A stretch of 64,000 nt of DNA from Kofleriaceae bacterium (GCA_965215005.1 CBDCCZ010000049.1:160001-224000), one strand, 5' to 3'. Shown: positions 21,091 through 37,461, counted from the stretch's first letter. Program-made: numbers and translations. Notes: generated from the letters alone by a model not told the origin.

Positions 21091-21837
21091 ATGGCACCAG
21101 CGCGCATCCTCGTCGCCGACGACGACGGCTGGATTTCGAAGATGGTGGCCACCTTCCTCGAGAAACGCGGCTACCAGGTCGAAGCCGTCGCCGATGGCGA
21201 GCTTGCCCTTGAGCGTGCCATCGAAGAGCCGCCGGACCTGCTCATTACCGACGTGATGATGCCCGGCCTCGACGGCTGGACGCTCGTCAAGAACCTGCGC
21301 AGTCGCCCGGCGTTTGCGTTCTTGCCGGTGATCTTCCTGACCGCCCTCACCTCCGACGATGATCGAATTCGCGGCTTTCGCCTCGGCGCCGACGATTACG
21401 TGCCCAAGCCATTTCGTTTCGAAGAGCTCGAGCTGCGAGTCGTGAAGACGCTGCGCAACCGCACCATGCTGGAACGAACCACGCGCGAGCAGCTCGATGC
21501 GCCCGAACAGATGCTCACCGGCGACCTCGCGCATCTGGGCCTGCCATCTCTGCTCACGCTCCTGGAGATGGAACAGAAATCTGGCTTGCTCGAGCTCAAC
21601 ACTCCGCCGCAAGCCGGAAAGATTTGGCTGCGCAACGGTCGCATCGTGCGCGCCGAGCTCGATTCTCGGCCCGAGCCACGCAACGCCGAGTGCATTTACG
21701 AGCTGCTGCGCTGGTCGTCGGGCCGCTTCAGCTTTCGCATCGAGCCCATCGACTTCAGCCCCGAGATGGACGACTCCACCACCCACCTTCTCATCGAAGG
21801 CGCCCGTCGCCTCGACGAGTCGCAAAACATCCGTTGA
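21091..21837 (+). CDS. Response regulator with DUF4388 (PatA-N-like) domain
   Basis: ILVADDD...DLLITDVMMPGLDG...GADDYVPKPF receiver; LTGDLAHLGLPSLLTLLEMEQKSG DUF4388. Confidence 0.92.
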   Translation: MAPARILVADDDGWISKMVATFLEKRGYQVEAVADGELALERAIEEPPDLLITDVMMPGLDGWTLVKNLRSRPAFAFLPVIFLTALTSDDDRIRGFRLGADDYVPKPFRFEELELRVVKTLRNRTMLERTTREQLDAPEQMLTGDLAHLGLPSLLTLLEMEQKSGLLELNTPPQAGKIWLRNGRIVRAELDSRPEPRNAECIYELLRWSSGRFSFRIEPIDFSPEMDDSTTHLLIEGARRLDESQNIR

Positions 21838-21899
21838 CTCGCTCATCGCCGGAGCCTCCGGCTAGCCGGATGCGTCGCGTCGTGGTATCCGAATAGGCC

Positions 21900-22229
21900 T
21901 TGCGTCGTCTGCTGCCGTACATCGCCCTGATGCTCGTGTTCCAGCTCATGCCGGGAGCACGGGAGCTCGTGGAGAGCAGTCTGCATCTCGCGATCAACGG
22001 CCACGTAGCCCATGCTTTGGATGACGAAGAACACACGTCGCAAGACCAAGAGCACAACTGCTCTGGCCCGCTGCACGTCTGCTCTTGCCATCACGCCGCC
22101 AGTGCGCCCGTCGCGGTAGGTGTCGCAGTAACCCGCGTCGACATAGCCCTCGCGCCATCGCGTTGGGCTGGCGCTCGCGTCGTTGCCGCCGGGCACTACC
22201 CAGACGTGTTCCGGCCGCCGACCGCGTAG
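21900..22229 (+). CDS. Small secreted His/Cys-rich leader protein upstream of czcCBA, C-terminal FRPP
   Basis: Hydrophobic N-terminus; HVAH...EHNCSGPLHVCSCHH; ends FRPPTA*; TTG start. Confidence 0.72.
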   Translation: MRRLLPYIALMLVFQLMPGARELVESSLHLAINGHVAHALDDEEHTSQDQEHNCSGPLHVCSCHHAASAPVAVGVAVTRVDIALAPSRWAGARVVAAGHYPDVFRPPTA

Positions 22230-22319
22230 CTCTGCATTCACAGTCGTCGTGCGTCCTGCGCCTCAGCGCGGGGCGCGCCATCGGTGTTCTTTCGCCCGAT
22301 TCGCGGGTGGAGGCAGAGT
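22229..22319 (+). promoter_or_regulatory. Predicted RNA structure sequestering the czcC Shine-Dalgarno
   Basis: 22229-22241 GCTCTGCATTCAC pairs with 22307-22319 GTGGAGGCAGAGT (1 mismatch, 2 GU); inner hairpins 22251-22276 and 22280-22300. Confidence 0.6.
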
Positions 22320-23732
22320 ATGAAGCGAGCGATGTATTCGCGCGGCGCCGCCGTATTGGTGGCGGCGACGTGCGCCTCTGGGTTGACTCCGGCCAACGCT
22401 GGCGCCGGACCATTGCGTGCTGCAGGTGTGCCAGCCGACAAAGTGGCGGGTTCCGCGGTTCCTGCCGAGCACGGCGGCTCGAGCGCTGCTGACGCGGTTC
22501 CCAATCCTGCCATCAGCGAACCGATCTCGTTACAGGCGATCCTGGCATTCGCCGACCGCCACTCGCCGATTCTTCTGATAGCGCGAGCTCGAGCACAGCG
22601 CAGCGAGGCCGCCTTCGCGGCAGCCGCGCCGTGGTTGCCCACCAATCCATCGGTGACGGTGGGCGCCGGCTCGCGCGCGGCAACGGGTGCACGCGCGTTC
22701 GATTATCAGGTCAGCCTGTCGCAAACGATCGAGATTGCCGGTGAGCGCGGGCTCCGGCTCGCGGCAGCCGAGCGCTTCGCCGAGGTCACCGAGCTCGAAA
22801 TCGAAGAAGCGCGGTGGGTCGTCCACCACGACGTCCATGCCAGTTATCACGATGCGCTGCTGGCGCGCGAGAAGCTAGCGATCGCGGCGCGGGCTCTGCA
22901 GTTCGCCGAGCGTCTGCTCGACGTGGCGCAACGACGGCTCGCTGCCGGCGATATCGCGCCGCTGCAGGTGCGGATCGCCGAGGGCGAGCTCGCCCAAGCG
23001 GAGCAGGCAAGCTTGGCCGCCGAGCAGCAGTACGACACCGCCCGCCTCGTGCTCGCCGAGCTCAGCGGTTGGCCCGTAGACACACCACCCGTTCCCGCCG
23101 GCGCGCTCGACGTTCCCCGCCAAGCCCCCGATGCAGCCGCGCTGATCGTCCAGGCAACGGAGCATCATCCGCGCCTGCGTAGCGATGTCGCGGCCCTTGC
23201 CGAGGCGCGTGCGCGGCAAGACCTCGCGAATCGCGAGCGCTGGCCCGCGCTCACCATCGGTATCGGGTATGAGCGCGAAGCGGACCCACCAACGGGCATC
23301 GCCGAGTCCATCACTGGAATCGCGCTGACGATGCCGCTGCCGCTGTGGCAGCGAAACCAGGCGGAACGGGCGCAAGCGCGCGCTGACGTGGGGCTAGCCG
23401 ACGCCGAGCTCGCCGCGCTCCGACAGACCCTTGCCGCGCAAGTGGCGCGTGCGGTGGTGCGAGTCAACGCCGCCGCAGCACGCATCGAGGCATATGCGCG
23501 CCAGGTTCTCCCGGCGTTCGAGCAGAACCTCGCGCTCCTGGATCGCGCCTTTGAGCTCGGCGAGATCGACATGATCGAGCTGATGGTCGCGCGCGGTCGC
23601 TTCTTGGAAGTGCAAGCAACCGCGCTCGCGGCGTACGACGACTACTACAAAGCCATCGCCGATCTCGAGTCGACGGTCGGCGCAGAGCTGTGGCCAGAAG
23701 AACGCCACGAGCACAAAGGAGCTGGCCAATGA
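22320..23732 (+). CDS. czcC: TolC-family outer membrane efflux protein (CzcC-like)
   Basis: Two OEP repeats; GGAGG RBS before ATG 22320; precedes MFP and RND genes. Confidence 0.88.
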   Translation: MKRAMYSRGAAVLVAATCASGLTPANAGAGPLRAAGVPADKVAGSAVPAEHGGSSAADAVPNPAISEPISLQAILAFADRHSPILLIARARAQRSEAAFAAAAPWLPTNPSVTVGAGSRAATGARAFDYQVSLSQTIEIAGERGLRLAAAERFAEVTELEIEEARWVVHHDVHASYHDALLAREKLAIAARALQFAERLLDVAQRRLAAGDIAPLQVRIAEGELAQAEQASLAAEQQYDTARLVLAELSGWPVDTPPVPAGALDVPRQAPDAAALIVQATEHHPRLRSDVAALAEARARQDLANRERWPALTIGIGYEREADPPTGIAESITGIALTMPLPLWQRNQAERAQARADVGLADAELAALRQTLAAQVARAVVRVNAAAARIEAYARQVLPAFEQNLALLDRAFELGEIDMIELMVARGRFLEVQATALAAYDDYYKAIADLESTVGAELWPEERHEHKGAGQ

Positions 23733-24922
23733 GGTCTGCGCTGGGATTGAGCGTCATGTTGGTGCTGTCGGCAAGCTGTGGAAACAGCGCCGCCAGCGGA
23801 ACCGGTGGAGACGGCGAGCACGCAGACGGCGAGCACGCAGACGGCGAGCACGCAGACGGCGAGCACGCAGACGGCCAGGAGCGAGCCGTGGTGCGGCTCA
23901 GTGAAGCCGCGATAGCGCGACACGATGTCCGCATCGCCAACGTTGAGTCGCAAACGTTGGTGGGCGGCGTGGACGTTCCCGCCGAGGTGCAGCTCGATCC
24001 AGCGCGAGTCGCCCACGTGACCTCGCTGGCGGCGGGGCGACTTTCGAGTGTTGGGGCCAACGTGGGTGACCGCGTCGAGAAGGGCCAGGTGCTGGCAGCC
24101 CTCGAGAGCGCCGAGCTCGGCGAGACCCGCTCTTCTGTCGATCGCGCTCAAGCCACACTCGAGGCGGCTCGGTCGAGCTATGAACGGCAAAAACAGCTCC
24201 ACGAAGAAGGAATCGGCGCCGAGCGCGCGTTCGTCGAGGCGCGCTCCGAGCTAAGGCAGGCCGAAGCCGCGCTCGCCTCGGTACGTCGGCGCCTCGGCGT
24301 CTACGGCAAGGGCGGCTCCGGTGCTTCGAGCTTCATCCGCAGCCCCCTCGCCGGCGAAATCATCGAGCGTCACGCCAGCGTTGGCGAGGTCGTCGGCCCC
24401 GATGCACCGCTGTTCGTCGTCGCCGATTTGCGTCGCGTCTGGATCATCGGCCGGGTGTACCCGCAGCAAGTTGCTGCCGCGAGCAAAGGCAAGCCCATCA
24501 CCCTCTCCCTCGATGCCTATCCCGGCCGCACCTGGTCGGCGGCGCTCGACTATGTCGCGCCCACTCTCGACGAAGCAACGCGCACCCTGCAAGTGCGCGC
24601 CGAGCTCGACAACGCGGAGGGGCAGCTGCGACCGGGCCTCTTCGGAACGCTATCGCTTCCGCCGGCCGGCAGCGACGGCGACAAGGTTCCGACCATCGCG
24701 GCAGACGCGGTCCTCGACCTCGATGGCCAGCCGTCCGTGTTCATCCCAGACGACGAGTCCGGCACCTATCGAGCGGTGCCCGTCACCGTAGGCGCGCGCA
24801 GCCATGGGCGCGTGGCGATCACCAGCGGCCTGGAGCCGGGGCAAGCCTATGTGGCTAGCGGCAGCTTCGTTCTCAAGTCGCAACTCTTGTCCGCCGAGCT
24901 CGGCGAAGGCCACGCGCACTGA
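23729..24922 (+). CDS. czcB: RND membrane fusion protein (CzcB-like) with N-terminal His repeat
   Basis: Lipobox LSASC; GDRVEKGQVL, IRSPLAG, LRPGLF motifs; ends GEGHAH. Confidence 0.9.
   Translation: MRSALGLSVMLVLSASCGNSAASGTGGDGEHADGEHADGEHADGEHADGQERAVVRLSEAAIARHDVRIANVESQTLVGGVDVPAEVQLDPARVAHVTSLAAGRLSSVGANVGDRVEKGQVLAALESAELGETRSSVDRAQATLEAARSSYERQKQLHEEGIGAERAFVEARSELRQAEAALASVRRRLGVYGKGGSGASSFIRSPLAGEIIERHASVGEVVGPDAPLFVVADLRRVWIIGRVYPQQVAAASKGKPITLSLDAYPGRTWSAALDYVAPTLDEATRTLQVRAELDNAEGQLRPGLFGTLSLPPAGSDGDKVPTIAADAVLDLDGQPSVFIPDDESGTYRAVPVTVGARSHGRVAITSGLEPGQAYVASGSFVLKSQLLSAELGEGHAH
23809..23875 (+). repeat. 15-bp perfect tandem repeat (AGACGGCGAGCACGC x4 plus partial) encoding (DGEHA)n
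   Basis: Direct inspection. Confidence 0.95.
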
Positions 24923-24927
24923 GGCCA

Positions 24928-27900
24928 ATGACCATGATCGATCGAATCATCGAGTTCTCGCTACGCAACCGTTTCCTGGTCATTTTCGTGGTGCTGCTCG
25001 TGGCAGCCATCGGCGTGCGCGCCCTGCAGACGTTGCCCATCGACGCCGTTCCTGACGTCACCAACGTACAGGTGCAGGTACTAACGAATGCACCCTCGCT
25101 CGGGCCCCTGGAGGTCGAGCAATTCATCACCTTCCCAGTAGAGACGGTGATGAGCGGCCTGCCGCGCCTACAGGAGGTGCGCAGCATCTCGCGCTTTGGC
25201 TTATCAGCGGTGACCATCGTGTTTGACGAAGGCACCGACATCTACTTTGCGCGGCAGCTCGTGCAAGAGCGACTCTCCGAGGCGCGCGATGCCATTCCCG
25301 CTGGCTACGGCAGTCCCGAGATGGGTCCGATTTCCTCCGGGCTCGGCGAGATCTATCAGTTCGAGGTTCGCGGCGAGCCTATGTGCGCCGAGCAAGTCGA
25401 CACGGAGGACTGCTACACGCCCATGGAGCTGCGGACGATTCTCGACTGGTACATCGCGTATCAGCTGCGCTCCATCGATGGCGTGGTGGAGGTCAACAGC
25501 TTCGGTGGCGAGCTAAAGACCTACGAGGTGCGCGTGCAGCCAGAGCGGCTGATCGGGCTCGACCTCGGACTCGATGCCATCTACGAAGCGCTCGAGCGCA
25601 ACAACGCCAACGCCGGCGGCGGTTATCTAGTGCACGCCGGTGAACAACGGCTGATCCGCGCTGAGGGCTTGATTTCCAGCCTCGATGATATCCGCGACAT
25701 CGTCATCACCACCCGCAGCGACGGCACGCCGCTGCGCATCCGCGAGGTCGCAGACGTGGTGATCGCGCCGATGATTCGCCAAGGGGCTGTGACGCGCGAT
25801 GGCCGCGGCGAAGTGGTGACGGGCATCGTCATGATGCTCATGGGCGCTAACTCCGGAGCCGTTGCCGAGGAGGTCCACGAGCGAATTGCTGCGCTCCGCG
25901 ACACCCTGCCCGAGGGCGTCACCATCGATACCTACTACGACCGCGCCGAGCTCGTCGACCGCACGATTGCCACCGTCGCCAAGAATCTAATCGAAGGCGG
26001 CGTTTTGGTCGTCGTCGTGCTCCTGCTCTTGCTGGGCAATCTGCGCGGCGGCTTATTGGTGGCCAGCGCGATTCCGCTCAGCATGTTGGCCGCGTTCATC
26101 GCCATGAAGCAGTTCGAGGTATCGGGCAATCTGATGAGCCTCGGCGCGCTCGACTTCGGGCTCATCGTCGATGGTTCGGTAGTGATGGTCGAGCACATCG
26201 TCCTCGTCCTTGCGCAGCGGCGGGAGCCGCTCGACGTGCGGCACGGCGTACTGAGCGCCGCAAAGGACGTCGCGCGTCCGGTGACGTTCGCGGTTGGCAT
26301 CATCATGCTCGTCTACGTGCCGATCCTTTCGCTGCAGGGAATCGAAGGCAAGATGTTCCGGCCGATGGCCTTGACGGTGCTGTTTGCCTTGGCGGCGTCG
26401 TTGGTGCTGGCGCTCACCTTCATGCCGGCGATGGCCACGCTCCTTTTTCGTCGCGGCGTCTCCGAAAAGAAAACCTGGCTCATCCGCACCCTCGAGCCTC
26501 GCTACCAGCGCGCGCTGCGATGGCTCTTGAGCCGGCGCGCCATTCCCCTCTTCGTGACCGTGTTGCTCATGGCCGGCGCGGCCAGCATCGTGCCGTTTCT
26601 GGGAGCGGAGTTCATTCCGCGGCTCGACGAAGGCGCCATCGCCATGCAGGCGATCCGGCTCCCCTCGGTTTCACTCGAGGAGTCGGTCAAAGCCACGACC
26701 CGCATCGAAACGGCGCTGCGCGAACACTTTCCCGACGAGGTCGACACCATCGTCTCGCGCACCGGCCGCCCCGAAATTGCCACCGATCCCATGGGCGTCG
26801 AGATGTCCGACATCTACGTGATGCTGGAGCCGCCCAAGCAGTGGACGCGGGCCAGCAGCAAACAGGAGCTCGTCGATGCGATGAGCGAGGTCCTCTCTGG
26901 CGAGCTGCCCGGGCAGAACTTCATGTTCTCGCAACCGATCGAGCTGCGCACCAACGAGCTCATCAGTGGCTCGCGCGCCGACGTCGCCATCAAGCTCTAC
27001 GGCGACGACCTTGAAGTCCTAGGGCGGGTAGCCGATGACATCGCCCGCGTGGTTTCCGGTGTGCCGGGAGCCGGTGACGTGAGCACCGAGCAGATCGCTG
27101 GATTGCCGGCCCTACGGGTCCGCATCGACCGCGGCGCGATCGCGCGCTACGGCATCGATGCGGCGCAGGTTCTCGACGCCGTATCCGCCCTCGCGGGGCA
27201 TCCGGTGGGTGAGGTCTTCGAAGGCCAGCGCCGCTTCAGCCTTCAGGTGCGCCTGCCCCCAAGCCGCCGCAGCGATCTGCAGAGCATTCGCAACCTGCCG
27301 ATCTCGGCGCCCAATGGCAAGAGCATTGCTCTCGGAGAGCTTGCGAGCCTCGAGTACGATGAGGGGCCGGCGCAAATCAGCCGCGAGAACGTGCAACGAC
27401 GCACCACCATCTCGGTGAACGTACGCGGCGACGATCTCGCTGGCGTCGTCGCCGAAGCACAGCGCCGAGTCGCGGCGCAGGTGGAGATGCCACCCGGCTA
27501 CTTTCTCGAGTGGGGTGGGCAGTTCAAGAACTTGGCGGAGGCCAGCGGGCGGCTCGCGCTGGCGGTTCCGGCGGCCTTGGTGCTGATCTTCTTGCTGTTG
27601 TTCATGACCTACGGGTCGGCTCGGCCGGCCGCGGTGATCTACTTGAACGTGCCGTTCGCGGCCATCGGCGGCATCTTGGCGCTCGCAGTCCGTGGGATGC
27701 CGTTTTCCATCTCCGCCGGGGTCGGCTTCATCGCACTATTCGGGATCGCTGTCCTCAACGGCGTCGTCATGGTCTCTTCAATTCGGGGGCTCCAACAGCG
27801 CGGCCGTCCGCCCTTCGAAGCCACCTTGCAAGGAGCTGTCACGCGCCTGCGCCCGGTCCTCATGACCGCGCTCGTCGCCTCGCTCGGGTTCGTGCCCATG

Positions 27901-28083
27901 GCAGTTGCCACCAGCGCGGGCGCCGAGGTGCAACGGCCGCTCGCCACGGTGGTCATCGGCGGGCTGATCTCGGCCACGCTGCTAACCCTGTTCGTGCTGC
28001 CAACCATCTATGCCTGGCTCGGCGGCAGCCCCGCTCACACCGCAGACGAGGCCTTAGCGCCTACCACGGAGGAGAGGCCATGA
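24928..28083 (+). CDS. czcA: Heavy-metal RND efflux permease, CzcA type
   Basis: LPIDAVPDVTNVQVQV, GNLMSLGALDFGLIVDG, RLRPVLMTALVASLGFVPMA, GAEVQRPLATVVIGG. Confidence 0.95.
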   Translation: MTMIDRIIEFSLRNRFLVIFVVLLVAAIGVRALQTLPIDAVPDVTNVQVQVLTNAPSLGPLEVEQFITFPVETVMSGLPRLQEVRSISRFGLSAVTIVFDEGTDIYFARQLVQERLSEARDAIPAGYGSPEMGPISSGLGEIYQFEVRGEPMCAEQVDTEDCYTPMELRTILDWYIAYQLRSIDGVVEVNSFGGELKTYEVRVQPERLIGLDLGLDAIYEALERNNANAGGGYLVHAGEQRLIRAEGLISSLDDIRDIVITTRSDGTPLRIREVADVVIAPMIRQGAVTRDGRGEVVTGIVMMLMGANSGAVAEEVHERIAALRDTLPEGVTIDTYYDRAELVDRTIATVAKNLIEGGVLVVVVLLLLLGNLRGGLLVASAIPLSMLAAFIAMKQFEVSGNLMSLGALDFGLIVDGSVVMVEHIVLVLAQRREPLDVRHGVLSAAKDVARPVTFAVGIIMLVYVPILSLQGIEGKMFRPMALTVLFALAASLVLALTFMPAMATLLFRRGVSEKKTWLIRTLEPRYQRALRWLLSRRAIPLFVTVLLMAGAASIVPFLGAEFIPRLDEGAIAMQAIRLPSVSLEESVKATTRIETALREHFPDEVDTIVSRTGRPEIATDPMGVEMSDIYVMLEPPKQWTRASSKQELVDAMSEVLSGELPGQNFMFSQPIELRTNELISGSRADVAIKLYGDDLEVLGRVADDIARVVSGVPGAGDVSTEQIAGLPALRVRIDRGAIARYGIDAAQVLDAVSALAGHPVGEVFEGQRRFSLQVRLPPSRRSDLQSIRNLPISAPNGKSIALGELASLEYDEGPAQISRENVQRRTTISVNVRGDDLAGVVAEAQRRVAAQVEMPPGYFLEWGGQFKNLAEASGRLALAVPAALVLIFLLLFMTYGSARPAAVIYLNVPFAAIGGILALAVRGMPFSISAGVGFIALFGIAVLNGVVMVSSIRGLQQRGRPPFEATLQGAVTRLRPVLMTALVASLGFVPMAVATSAGAEVQRPLATVVIGGLISATLLTLFVLPTIYAWLGGSPAHTADEALAPTTEERP

Positions 28084-28111
28084 ACCCGAGCGCCAACCTG
28101 AGGTGGGTGTC

Positions 28112-28909
28112 GTGAGCGGCGGACTCATTACCGTGCTGCTGCTGGCGCTGCTGCCAGGCCTTGGCAACGTTGCCGGGGGACTGCTCGCAGAGTTCACGAA
28201 AGCCTCGCCACGAGTACTCAACTGGGCGCTGCACGCCGCTTCGGGCATCGTCTTGGCGATCGTCTCGGTGGAGCTCCTGCCACGCGCGCTCGATGCACTC
28301 GCGGGCTGGTGGATCGCCGCAGCGTTTACCGCGGGTGGACTTGCCTACCTCGTCCTCGAGCTGGGCATCGACCGCATGCAAAGCGAACGCGGCAACGGAG
28401 AATCCTCTGCGGGCGGTAGCCGCATGTGGATGATCTACGCGGCGGTGGCTACCGACCTGGTGAGTGATGGCTTGATGATCGGAGCCGGTTCCGCGGTATC
28501 CGTGCAGCTCGCGCTGCTGCTCGCCGCCGGCCAAGTTCTTGCCGACGTTCCGGAAGGCTACGCCTCCATCGCCAACTTCCGCGACAAAGAGGTGCCGCGC
28601 CTTCGGCGCCTGCTCCTGTCGATGACCTTCGTGCTGTTTGCTGTCGGCGCCGCGTTGCTCTCATATCTGCTGCTCCGCCCGGCGCCGGAACCTATTAAGT
28701 TGGCCGCGCTGGTCTTCGTGGCTGGCCTTCTCACCGTGGCGGCCGTGGAAGACATGCTCGAAGAAGCCCATGAGGCGTGCGGCGATAACCGCGGCTCGGT
28801 GCTCGCCTTCGTGCTCGGGTTCGCGCTCTTCATCGTGGTGTCGACGGGCTTGGAAGCGCTCATCGGCGGCGAATCCAACCCCTCGCAAACCTCGGAGCAG
28901 GGGTCATAA
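28112..28909 (+). CDS. ZIP family metal transporter
   Basis: Multi-TM protein; TDLVSDGLMIGAG, LADVPEG, EDMLEEAHE motifs; GTG start at 28112 or 28103. Confidence 0.85.
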   Translation: MSGGLITVLLLALLPGLGNVAGGLLAEFTKASPRVLNWALHAASGIVLAIVSVELLPRALDALAGWWIAAAFTAGGLAYLVLELGIDRMQSERGNGESSAGGSRMWMIYAAVATDLVSDGLMIGAGSAVSVQLALLLAAGQVLADVPEGYASIANFRDKEVPRLRRLLLSMTFVLFAVGAALLSYLLLRPAPEPIKLAALVFVAGLLTVAAVEDMLEEAHEACGDNRGSVLAFVLGFALFIVVSTGLEALIGGESNPSQTSEQGS

Positions 28910-28921
28910 CGGCTCGATTGG

Positions 28922-29545
28922 CTATCCAGCGCGCGCGCTGGCAAGCTCGGCGCGCGCGTCTCGGCAGATGCCGATGGCGTCTTTGAGAAACAGCGCGGCG
29001 ATGAGCCCGCCGACGAGAACGTCGGGCCATGTCGAGCCCAGAATGGCGACAGCGCCGGCGGCGGCCAAAACGCCGGTGTTGGCGATGATGTCGTTGCGCG
29101 AGCACAGCCAGGTGGAGCGCATGTTGAGGTCATCGGAGCGGTGGCGATAGAGCAGCGCGACGCAGGTGAGGTTGGCAGCGAGCGCTAGCGCACCGATGAG
29201 ACCCATAGCGTCGGCGGCAGGGACGGTGCTGGTCGCCAGCGCCACGGCGGCCTGCACCGCGACGCCAACGCCAAGAGCTGCCATGACAAGCCCCTTGGCG
29301 AGCGCCGCCCGAGCTCGCCACACGGCGCCGCGATGGATGACATAAAGCGTGAGCGCGTAGACGGCGGCGTCGCCGAACATGTCCGCCGAGTCAGCCAACA
29401 GCGCGGTGGATCGCGCGAACACCCCTGCCGACGCCTCTATGAAGAACATCGCGGTGTTGATGGCAAGCAGCCACTTGAGCACCGTGGCTTGGCGCGACCG
29501 CAGAATCGCCAGAGTATCTGTTTTCGAGTCGCAACAGCCGCTCAC
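28922..29545 (-). CDS. Cation diffusion facilitator (CzcD-like, lacking the cytosolic CTD)
   Basis: STALLADSADMFGD, NMRSTWLCSRND, WPDVLVG; N-terminal GCC; GTG start inferred. Confidence 0.9.
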   Translation of the reverse strand: MSGCCDSKTDTLAILRSRQATVLKWLLAINTAMFFIEASAGVFARSTALLADSADMFGDAAVYALTLYVIHRGAVWRARAALAKGLVMAALGVGVAVQAAVALATSTVPAADAMGLIGALALAANLTCVALLYRHRSDDLNMRSTWLCSRNDIIANTGVLAAAGAVAILGSTWPDVLVGGLIAALFLKDAIGICRDARAELASARAG

Positions 29546-29790
29546 GAGCCACCCTCGGCAAGACGCGCCCCTGCGTTGCAGCGGCGACAGCCAACGCATC
29601 GATCGCGTCGTAGGTTAGCCAAGCAGAGGCGAACGTTCATGCAACGAGTTTCGCAGATGATCCCGATCCATCCAACCAAGGTCGTTGTGTCCAAGCCCGT
29701 CGTTGCCCCACCGTTGCCTGCAGCGGGCATTACCGCGCAACGGCACCTCATTGAGCTCGGCGGCAGCGCGGCCAGCAAAATCAGGAGGAA

Positions 29791-36960: not shown

Positions 36961-37082
36961 TGATCTCTTCGCTCCTACGCGCGAGCCATCACAGAGCTGC
37001 GCGCGCAAGCGCAGCCCACTCCCAAGTCGCGGAAACTAATTTGTCCGCTCCTTGGCCTACGGCTGTGCAGAGCTCAGATCAG
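36961..37082 (-). promoter_or_regulatory. Predicted RNA structure sequestering the cusC-like Shine-Dalgarno
   Basis: Minus strand: TGATCT-GA-GCTCTGC across the leader stop can pair with GTAGGAGC-GAAG-AGATCA directly before the ATG; inner hairpins GCGGA/TCCGC and GCTGCGC/GCGCAGC. Confidence 0.5.
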
Positions 37083-37461
37083 AAAGGTGCAGTGCTTGAC
37101 GAACAACGGCAGCGCCGCAACCAAGGGCGGACCGCGCGCTCGGCGCGGCTGCGTCGCGTCGGCCATCACCAGCGGCTTCACCGTCGATGGCGTCGCCCAC
37201 CACGTCATCCAAATCGGAGCGCTCTGGCGATGCACCTCGGCCAGTAGCGCCGGCGCGTGCTCGACGTTGCCCACGCGAAGTTCGCAGCAGCGCGGGGCCC
37301 GCTCGACGGAAGCCGCATCTGTTGGCGAGGAGTTATCCACGCAGCAGCACGAGCCGTGCACCTGGCCGTCCATGCGGCACGCGTAGCTCACGCTTGTCGC
37401 GACCGTGGAGGTCACGAGGATGACGAGCGCCATCACGGCGGGGAGCAAACGCACGGACATG
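37074..37461 (-). CDS. Small secreted Cys-rich leader protein upstream of cusCBA with RARGPP motif
   Basis: Signal-like N-terminus; YACRM, CCC, CCE; RARGPP...HCTFLI C-terminus; start uncertain (37461-37484). Confidence 0.75.

Follow-up and report, generated by a model that had tools for sequence, protein, structure and literature searches.

A conserved leader peptide gene ahead of czcCBA in a Kofleriaceae bacterium: a candidate nascent-chain sensor of divalent metals

Leaders of the CutF-like kind have been collected by a rule (PMC9973294) whereby a gene of fewer than 150 aa must carry a PP in its last 15 residues, a Sec signal peptide and a same-strand neighbour within at most 1000 nt. According to the same source, the commonest neighbours are OEP genes (CusC/CzcC/SilC) of RND systems, CutF and CruR are copper-responsive with non-copper CutF-like members predicted, and copL (Xanthomonas/Stenotrophomonas copLAB) acts in cis. 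For CruR, the distance between the metal motif and Pro-Pro is given as 45 residues (PMC9426467). In RAP/P arrest peptides the change of Ala to Pro at the middle position is described as partly tolerated (PMC12992588), and in E. coli diprolyl stalls are reported to fall after the last Pro, with RPP alone reported not to stall (PMC4176338). The expression of czcICBA in Cupriavidus is described as independent of CzcRS (PMC10127602), and czcI has a 5′ leader of 53 nt (PMC9045368). Our literature searches returned no published account of the leader family presented here or of a non-copper stalling leader, and none of the regulation of Myxococcus czc1/czc2. Also, six myxobacterial names or motifs had no match in three small supplements of PMC9973294.

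The features around the start of czcC in our window, i.e. the whole stretch of 64,000 nucleotides that was analysed, are listed in Table 1. The ORF with a terminal RPP that was originally predicted before czcC is present and is conserved across a family. It agrees with the CutF-like rule in its size of 109 aa, in the position of P106-P107 within the last 15 residues and in having a same-strand gene 90 nt away (leader stop to the czcC ATG at 22320). No clear AxA cleavage site was seen in the leader, the N-terminus of which is a hydrophobic helix (residues 5-16). It may be noted that the coding score of the leader is neutral (-0.02, as against 0.24 and 0.51 for the neighbouring genes), and therefore its standing as a gene rests on conservation. 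Overlapping alternative frames, with coding scores of -0.001 and -0.49 and without conservation, were dropped, and the family alignment rules out Met11 or Met17 as the start. The structure model of the leader has two helices (pLDDT 71.6, pTM 0.39) and no secondary structure past residue 33. Searching the leader against Pfam gave no match, a single-sequence protein search gave 0 matches among 23 candidates, and Rfam gave nothing for 21800-22500 at E up to 1.

Table 1. Features of the leader and czcCBA region, with positions counted from the first letter of the window.
Feature	Position	Strand	Basis or remark
Weak sigma-70-like promoter candidate, TAGCCG-17-TATCCG, TG before -10	21863..21891	+	8 nt before leader start
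Leader ORF, 109 aa, family without a name	21900..22229	+	TTG start, TAG stop (22227-22229)
Signal-like hydrophobic helix, residues 5-16, then conserved Pro18	21912..21947	+	Hydropathy and helix prediction
Predicted helix, residues 20-33, E22xxE25xxxH29, possible second metal site	21957..21998	+	Conservation and structure model
His/Cys cluster E51-H52-x-C54...H59-x-C61-x-C63-H64-H65, putative metal site	22050..22094	+	Conservation
Linker, residues 66-103, length conserved, sequence free	22095..22208	+	41-row alignment
R105-P106-P107, putative conditional pause site two codons ahead of the stop	22212..22220	+	Conservation
5′ arm complementary to the czcC start region	22229..22241	+	Outer helix of the predicted minimum: 22229-22235
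Inner hairpin 1, 13 bp	22249..22278	+	Folding
Inner hairpin 2, holds most of the SD core even with the 5′ arm masked	22290..22312	+	Folding
czcC SD (GGAGG 22309-22313), spacer, ATG	22307..22322	+	SD pairing -9.3 kcal/mol
CzcC-type outer-membrane factor	22320..23732	+	PF02321 (OEP)
CzcB-type adaptor	23732..24922	+	PF16576 (HlyD_D23); TIGR00999 best NCBIfam match, under cut-off
CzcA-type heavy-metal RND pump, DFGLIVD in TM4	24928..28083	+	ACR_tran; TIGR00914 over cut-off
ZIP/ZupT-like transporter gene	28103..28909	+	PF02535 and NF003243, both under cut-off

Two comparisons drawn in the original prediction did not hold. The leader was set beside leaders of the DUF2946 type, whereas it has no match to PF11162 (cut-off 23.7 bits), only one of seven seed members reaching E 0.17, and it carries CxC and RPP, not CxxC and RAPP. 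DUF2946 clusters (22% of members) and DUF6660 clusters are among its Atlas neighbours. The end was likened to RAPP-type arrest peptides, whereas it reads RPP and not RxPP, which is the wrong register, and RPP alone is the form reported in PMC4176338 not to stall. The rule given in PMC12992588 asks for R-[AG]-P in the tunnel and Pro or Gly in the A site; the leader has neither residue in the A site, and the R-x-P-P register was found in 0 of 69 loci. Against the CopL family (NF033807) the leader scored 20.8 bits and so failed the cut-off of 40. Weak CopL matches were obtained for 18 of 41 members of the leader family (E up to 0.1, best 4.5e-7), with 30.6 bits as the best member score among the matches listed.

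A profile of 7 sequences found the leader family in 63 of the 401 genomes of the class, a tally that takes in the source genome, the seed genomes and one unpublished genome that no other result depends on, and a profile of 41 sequences found it in 42 of 401 phylum genomes. The host likely belongs to Myxococcota, to judge by the Atlas neighbour cluster and one source name. A profile search of a large protein set gave 6 leader-family proteins. Leader genes thus seem to be under-called, with 6 database proteins set against 63 genomes, the word-based search being the less sensitive. Family leaders are 100-117 aa long and contain 8 His in the median. Among 69 loci (the window's own locus, the seeds and two identical pairs included), 66 have the tail RPP, 2 have KPP and 1 has HPP, and in 59 of the 69 exactly two residues follow PP. 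Where CxC is in range (55 loci), it stands 41-42 residues ahead of the Arg in 48 cases. As the profiles include the tail, these tail and spacing counts are partly selected. Of the 32 held-out loci, 15 have RPP and 2 HPP, 14 have a different xPP (PPP in 10 cases) and 1 has no PP; R/K/H-PP is thus absent in 15 of 32 and the Arg is not universal. In the 41-row alignment PP is invariant (41 of 41), and P18, E22, E25, H29, C54 and R105 are each conserved in at least 90% of rows (P18 38, E22 39, E25 38, H29 38 and C54 40 of 41), with H59 in 36, C61 in 34 and C63 in 33. The least conserved segment is the linker (majority-residue frequency 0.23 over residues 65-103), and the spacing from CxC to R has an SD of 0.67 as against 2.13 for H29 to CxC (n = 30 of 41). 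The residue before R is variable (F/Y/L/D/H/T/E/I/Q/P), and that after PP, in the A site, is I, R, T or A. In one locus (L128, G323:C3) a long His-rich insertion lies between the N-terminal helix and the Cys cluster, giving a frame of 194 aa with the 42-residue spacing kept.

The czcCBA labels were upheld by matches to OEP, HlyD_D23, ACR_tran and, over its cut-off, TIGR00914. ZneA (4K0E) is the best solved relative of the pump, with E 1.5e-207 as against 9.4e-173 for CusA, and the pump carries the DFGxxxD in TM4 which we take to be a mark of divalent-cation RND pumps. By family, by this motif and by being closer to ZneA than to CusA, the operon is classed from its sequence as a CzcA-type (divalent) heavy-metal RND operon, and the ZIP/ZupT-like gene, 19 nt from czcA, probably belongs to it. 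A CDF gene on the minus strand is convergent with the ZIP-like gene (window 28103-29599), clustering divalent-metal uptake and efflux. The gene following the leader was determined in 58 of 68 homologous loci (the other 10 were near-duplicates, in a wrong frame or at a contig end) and is OEP in 45, HlyD-type in 12 and truncated without match in 1. It is OEP in 15 of the 15 held-out genes scanned. An RND gene is present in 39 of 40 long loci, and all 39 score higher to the CzcA than to the CusA of the window; 28 of the 39 have DFGxxxD, the 11 without it including some truncated pumps or pumps of other subtype.

The original prediction also held that no czcRS pair is adjacent. We found no CzcR/CzcS-family gene over the curated cut-off in the whole genome, which is 92.8% complete, and none of the 118 upstream candidate ORFs of 40 loci encodes a DNA-binding response regulator. 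Among these ORFs are 2 ArsR, 1 MerR, 1 TetR and a few PAS kinases; the neighbours vary, and no regulator is conserved upstream in the 40 loci. Upstream of the leader lies a gene for a receiver + DUF4388 protein in which no DNA-binding domain was detected. Both rho and efp are present in the genome. The 12 best CzcC orthologs in relatives (E < 1e-70) are preceded by a homologous leader in 4 cases, an M56-like gene in 7 and another gene in 1; two more leaders came via weaker CzcC matches, and a CzcB-based contig scan of the genomes was set aside as it gave mostly distant or spurious loci. The M56-like genes, located upstream of close CzcC orthologs without a leader, resemble BlaR1 peptidase genes, 6 of the 7 matching PF05569 weakly and under the cut-off, and are possibly an alternative regulation of the same pump. 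Small Cys-rich leaders with the tails HVPK and FRPPR were also seen ahead of more distant OEP genes (L060:2774-3121 on the minus strand, and L054).

We then considered the RNA of the gap between the leader and czcC. The segment 22225-22325 folds with -51.6 kcal/mol (z -4.7; 0 of 200 shuffles as stable). The predicted 13-nt duplex between the end of the leader and the czcC SD region can form at 12 of 13 positions with two G-U pairs, but it is not the predicted minimum, in which the duplex is limited to 22229-22235 with 22313-22319. The stem does cover the czcC start region, but the SD core itself is held by the local inner hairpin 2, within which most of it (22309-22312) is paired in the predicted minimum. 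On masking the 5′ arm, 22314-22322 is freed while GGAGG is still about 95% paired. Opening the RBS costs 12.3 kcal/mol without a ribosome. A ribosome paused at RPP was further expected to cover the start of the arm, and the effect on the RBS depends on the register: with Pro106 in the P site (footprint of +13 nt) the cost falls by only 0.5 kcal/mol, but with Pro107 there it falls by 4.4, to 7.9 kcal/mol. A terminating ribosome lowers it by 5.6, to 6.7 kcal/mol. Relative to the drops in control gene pairs, these two rank at the 93rd (Pro107) and 97th (termination) percentile.

To compare the pairing across the family, we took 46 representatives of < 50% identity, of which 42 were usable, and set the energy of the duplex between a leader end and its own RBS against the energies obtained with RBSs of other loci matched in GC. 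The region from -12 to +8 around the stop pairs 2.4 kcal/mol better with its own RBS than with non-cognate ones (p 1e-4), this being the best of eight windows tried; this and the other p values are too strong because related loci are not independent. Distant windows had no advantage except +20..+40 (p 0.03), and no cognate advantage was found for a control target in the coding region. When this region was fixed beforehand, the advantage in the held-out set was 3.0 kcal/mol (p 0.02); 17 of the 32 loci were usable, and 10 of their 11 representatives entered the comparison. Cognate pairing is in the top 10% for 13 of 42 loci, which is far from universal, and our own locus ranks 0.30 in the best pairing region of the family and 0.08 in 0..+20. 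In most loci the arm coincides with the final codons and the stop; in that of the window it lies slightly further downstream. The terminal Ala codon is GCC in 20 of 28 cases with 10.9 expected. The gap from leader to next gene is 41-191 nt in the family (median 105). A GTGCGTC-like intergenic motif was noticed by eye, but the pattern used for it matched only 11 of 46 representatives, at times far from the stop, and it was dropped.

Masking by ribosome footprints gave median drops in RBS opening cost of 3.4 kcal/mol with the second Pro in the P site and 5.1 kcal/mol at termination, from the 31 of 46 representatives with GC of at least 58%. Control gene pairs (60 of the 252 in the genome, slightly less GC-rich at 0.63 vs 0.67) gave a drop of 0.0 kcal/mol. 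The free RBS is more closed in the family than in controls (12.9 vs 9.5) and comes to the ordinary level once masked. It may be noted that downstream starts were picked by SD strength with three corrected by hand, and that in 21 of 66 loci the Pro107 footprint gives a drop of < 2 kcal/mol. Folding does not separate a Pro-Pro pause from termination, and as termination is at least as effective in opening it, the stem needs no stalling. In four held-out loci without a strong SD, the bases of terminal GCC and of TGA are paired to a site of the AGG(C) type about 10-20 nt before the next ATG, and the stem draws stop and start together, as in termination-reinitiation coupling.

The candidate promoter in front of the leader would give a near-leaderless mRNA. 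SD pairing ahead of the TTG is only -2.8 kcal/mol. In the alignment the promoter boxes fall at the place where relatives have clear TTG../TA.... boxes. As the boxes in the window are weak, fail the strict family test and are missed by a consensus scan, the leader may instead be transcribed by read-through from the upstream receiver gene. For the family as a whole, 23 of 44 representatives have a TTG-type -35 together with a TA -10 box that lies 11-16 nt upstream of the leader start. The pattern is absent from all 44 downstream starts (0 of 44) and is seen at 0.5% of shifted positions, and an SD precedes only 3 of the 44 leaders; held-out loci had the pattern in 8 of 31 cases. Genome-wide it occurs at 189 of 3987 crude gene calls vs 60 for control codons, an enrichment that is overstated because most genes called are not first in their operon. 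Many members of the family thus look leaderless, for which czcI2 of Cupriavidus metallidurans is a precedent (PMC10127602). The receiver + DUF4388 gene (window 21053-21837, plus strand) looks leaderless too, as the end of a sigma-70 promoter (10/12) lies 8 nt ahead of its ATG.

The original idea of a CutF-like leader that acts in cis and is tied to the initiation of czcC is supported by sequence comparison: the family is conserved, PP is invariant, the distance stays at 41-42 residues, leader ends are complementary to their own RBS, and the pumps that follow are of the CzcA type. The stem, and its opening under a ribosome footprint, are computed. On this basis we consider it rather probable that the conserved cis leader works as a nascent-chain metal sensor, in which metal on the His/Cys cluster prolongs a Pro-Pro pause, the stem opens and czcC is translated. 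The leader would be translated steadily from a constitutive, often leaderless transcript, and its N-terminal helix would engage the translocon. With the ribosome at PP, the His/Cys cluster would be just out of the tunnel, where a bound divalent metal (likely Zn/Co/Cd/Ni) could hinder release and so prolong a weak pause, located either at Pro107 (as the P-site residue) or two codons later at the stop. The paused ribosome would then hold the czcC start region open for translation of the pump. As the pump is an exporter, metal is expected to induce rather than repress. Arg105 would take the place of the essential Arg of the RAP/P peptides if Pro107 is the P-site residue. Given that the A site holds no Pro and that a bare RPP reportedly does not stall, the pause should be intrinsically weak, which fits a conditional switch and equally counts against stalling. 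We infer metal binding, membrane targeting, pause position, metal induction and the constitutive transcript, and metal-dependent stalling and Zn/Co/Cd specificity are likewise put forward as proposals, since ordinary termination is at least as good at opening the stem in the folding model.

That the largest opening comes from the termination footprint speaks for another explanation, whereby constitutive translational coupling is combined with an exported CzcI-like protein acting as a periplasmic metal buffer or pump quencher. Here the stem would be opened by each ribosome terminating at the leader stop, so that pump synthesis follows the leader, and the His/Cys protein would act later, in the periplasm. 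CzcI is described as a quencher of CzcCBA for Zn and Co (PMC10127602) and, according to PMC9973294, is without a C-terminal proline motif. The conserved ExxExxxH helix and the His cluster could form a metal site of the mature protein, and RPP is a poor staller according to PMC4176338. However, a mature protein leaves unexplained why PP is invariant two codons before the stop and why the linker is of fixed length and free in sequence, and the leader model lacks secondary structure past residue 33. We regard this explanation as unlikely, while giving it more weight than the others that follow.

The partly closed SD that is left here after masking would suit a control at the RNA level as in CruR, which works through Rho (PMC9426467). 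Here the paused ribosome would shield the transcript from Rho or RNases, the structure in the gap would serve as a pause or processing site, and metal would act on read-through or mRNA stability more than on initiation. Rho is encoded in the genome, the gaps are of the lengths given above, and the last 60 nt of the leader with the next 20 nt are mildly C-rich (0.18). The gaps themselves, however, have no C-over-G excess (0.05 vs 0.00 in the 252 controls) and no rut-like C-rich stretch, they are highly structured, a terminator-like site was looked for in vain, and the leader end pairs specifically with the RBS, making this reading improbable in our judgement. The signal-like N-terminus and the tunnel-length linker could also belong to a leader that monitors export capacity or the envelope state like SecM, with Cys/His serving folding or a disulfide-driven pulling; for CutF a disulfide-driven release has been proposed (bioRxiv 2025.02.05.636593). 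Yet the leader is found only before heavy-metal RND operons and the family has its median of 8 His, and we give this reading hardly any credence. As for the extent of the metal-sensing reading, it is conceivable, though we would lean against it, that the family constitutes phylum-wide, mostly uncalled leaderless sensors of divalent metals (Zn/Co/Cd/Ni) and not copper, with ExxExxxH and HxCxCH one tunnel length from a deliberately weak non-RAPP pause, replacing CzcRS.

A second leader is present in the window on the minus strand (37074-37460). It has 128 aa, is Cys-rich (CCC, CC), carries a true RGPP 16 residues from its end and stands 113 nt before the CusC-type gene (ATG 36960) of a CusA-type operon. 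Its gap folds (z -3.25) with the stop region paired to bases before the ATG, and relatives occur in 12 of 41 genomes (its own included), two of them with RAPP or RGPP. The two metal RND operons of the window are thus headed by two different leaders.

Whether Zn/Co/Cd can be sensed through nascent-chain stalling could be tested directly on the leader family, which has sharp testable residues and a tunnel-length ruler. If the phylum-wide reading above is true, the family would be the first tested stalling sensor of the zinc type and the main switch of czcCBA in place of CzcRS. The family also bears on the metal response of Cupriavidus czcICBA without CzcRS. What it adds to an already known principle is a divalent-metal target, the ruler, a pairing test run across the family and a leaderless layout.

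Among the known systems, CutF of the cutFOG operon of Rhodobacter capsulatus is similar in being small, in its signal-like N-terminus and in a Cys/His motif about 40 residues before PP (PMC9973294, PMC8456105), and also in a stem that covers the next RBS within a short gap (bioRxiv 10.1101/2025.02.05.636593). The CutF mechanism involves metal-induced stalling that is sensitive to EF-P, and action in cis only. Its spacing from C73 to P114 (bioRxiv 2025.02.05.636593, PMC8456105) is close to the CxC-to-RPP distance of our leader. The motif differs (CxxxxHxCxCH with ExxExxxH here, CxxHC in CutF), as do the tail (RPP[I]A here, PPPRL in CutF) and the target, which is a CzcA-type pump here and a copper oxidase for CutF. 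The weak CopL match starts at residue 37 and stops at PP, after which the profile has two more positions, just as two residues follow in the leader family. CopL differs in heading copper oxidase operons. CruR (Bp2923, Bordetella pertussis, DUF2946) likewise opens a metal operon, and the distance between its metal motif and Pro-Pro is constrained (PMC9426467). It differs by a true RAPP arrest that is relieved by Cu, the arrest being shown in PMC12992588, and by acting via Rho to repress an importer, with a TSS 45 bp upstream (PMC9426467). ApdA, ApdP and SecM (RAPP/RGPP) have Arg two places before the P-site Pro (PMC12992588), as the leader would have if Pro107 is in the P site. CzcI/CzcI2 of Cupriavidus metallidurans, compared by description (PMC10127602, PMC9045368), are similar as small exported-protein genes directly before czcCBA, and differ in being described as periplasmic quenchers (PMC10127602) and, according to PMC9973294, in the missing proline motif. 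By this comparison ours is a real and conserved regulatory leader of the CutF/CopL/CzcI-like kind, a design that is already catalogued.
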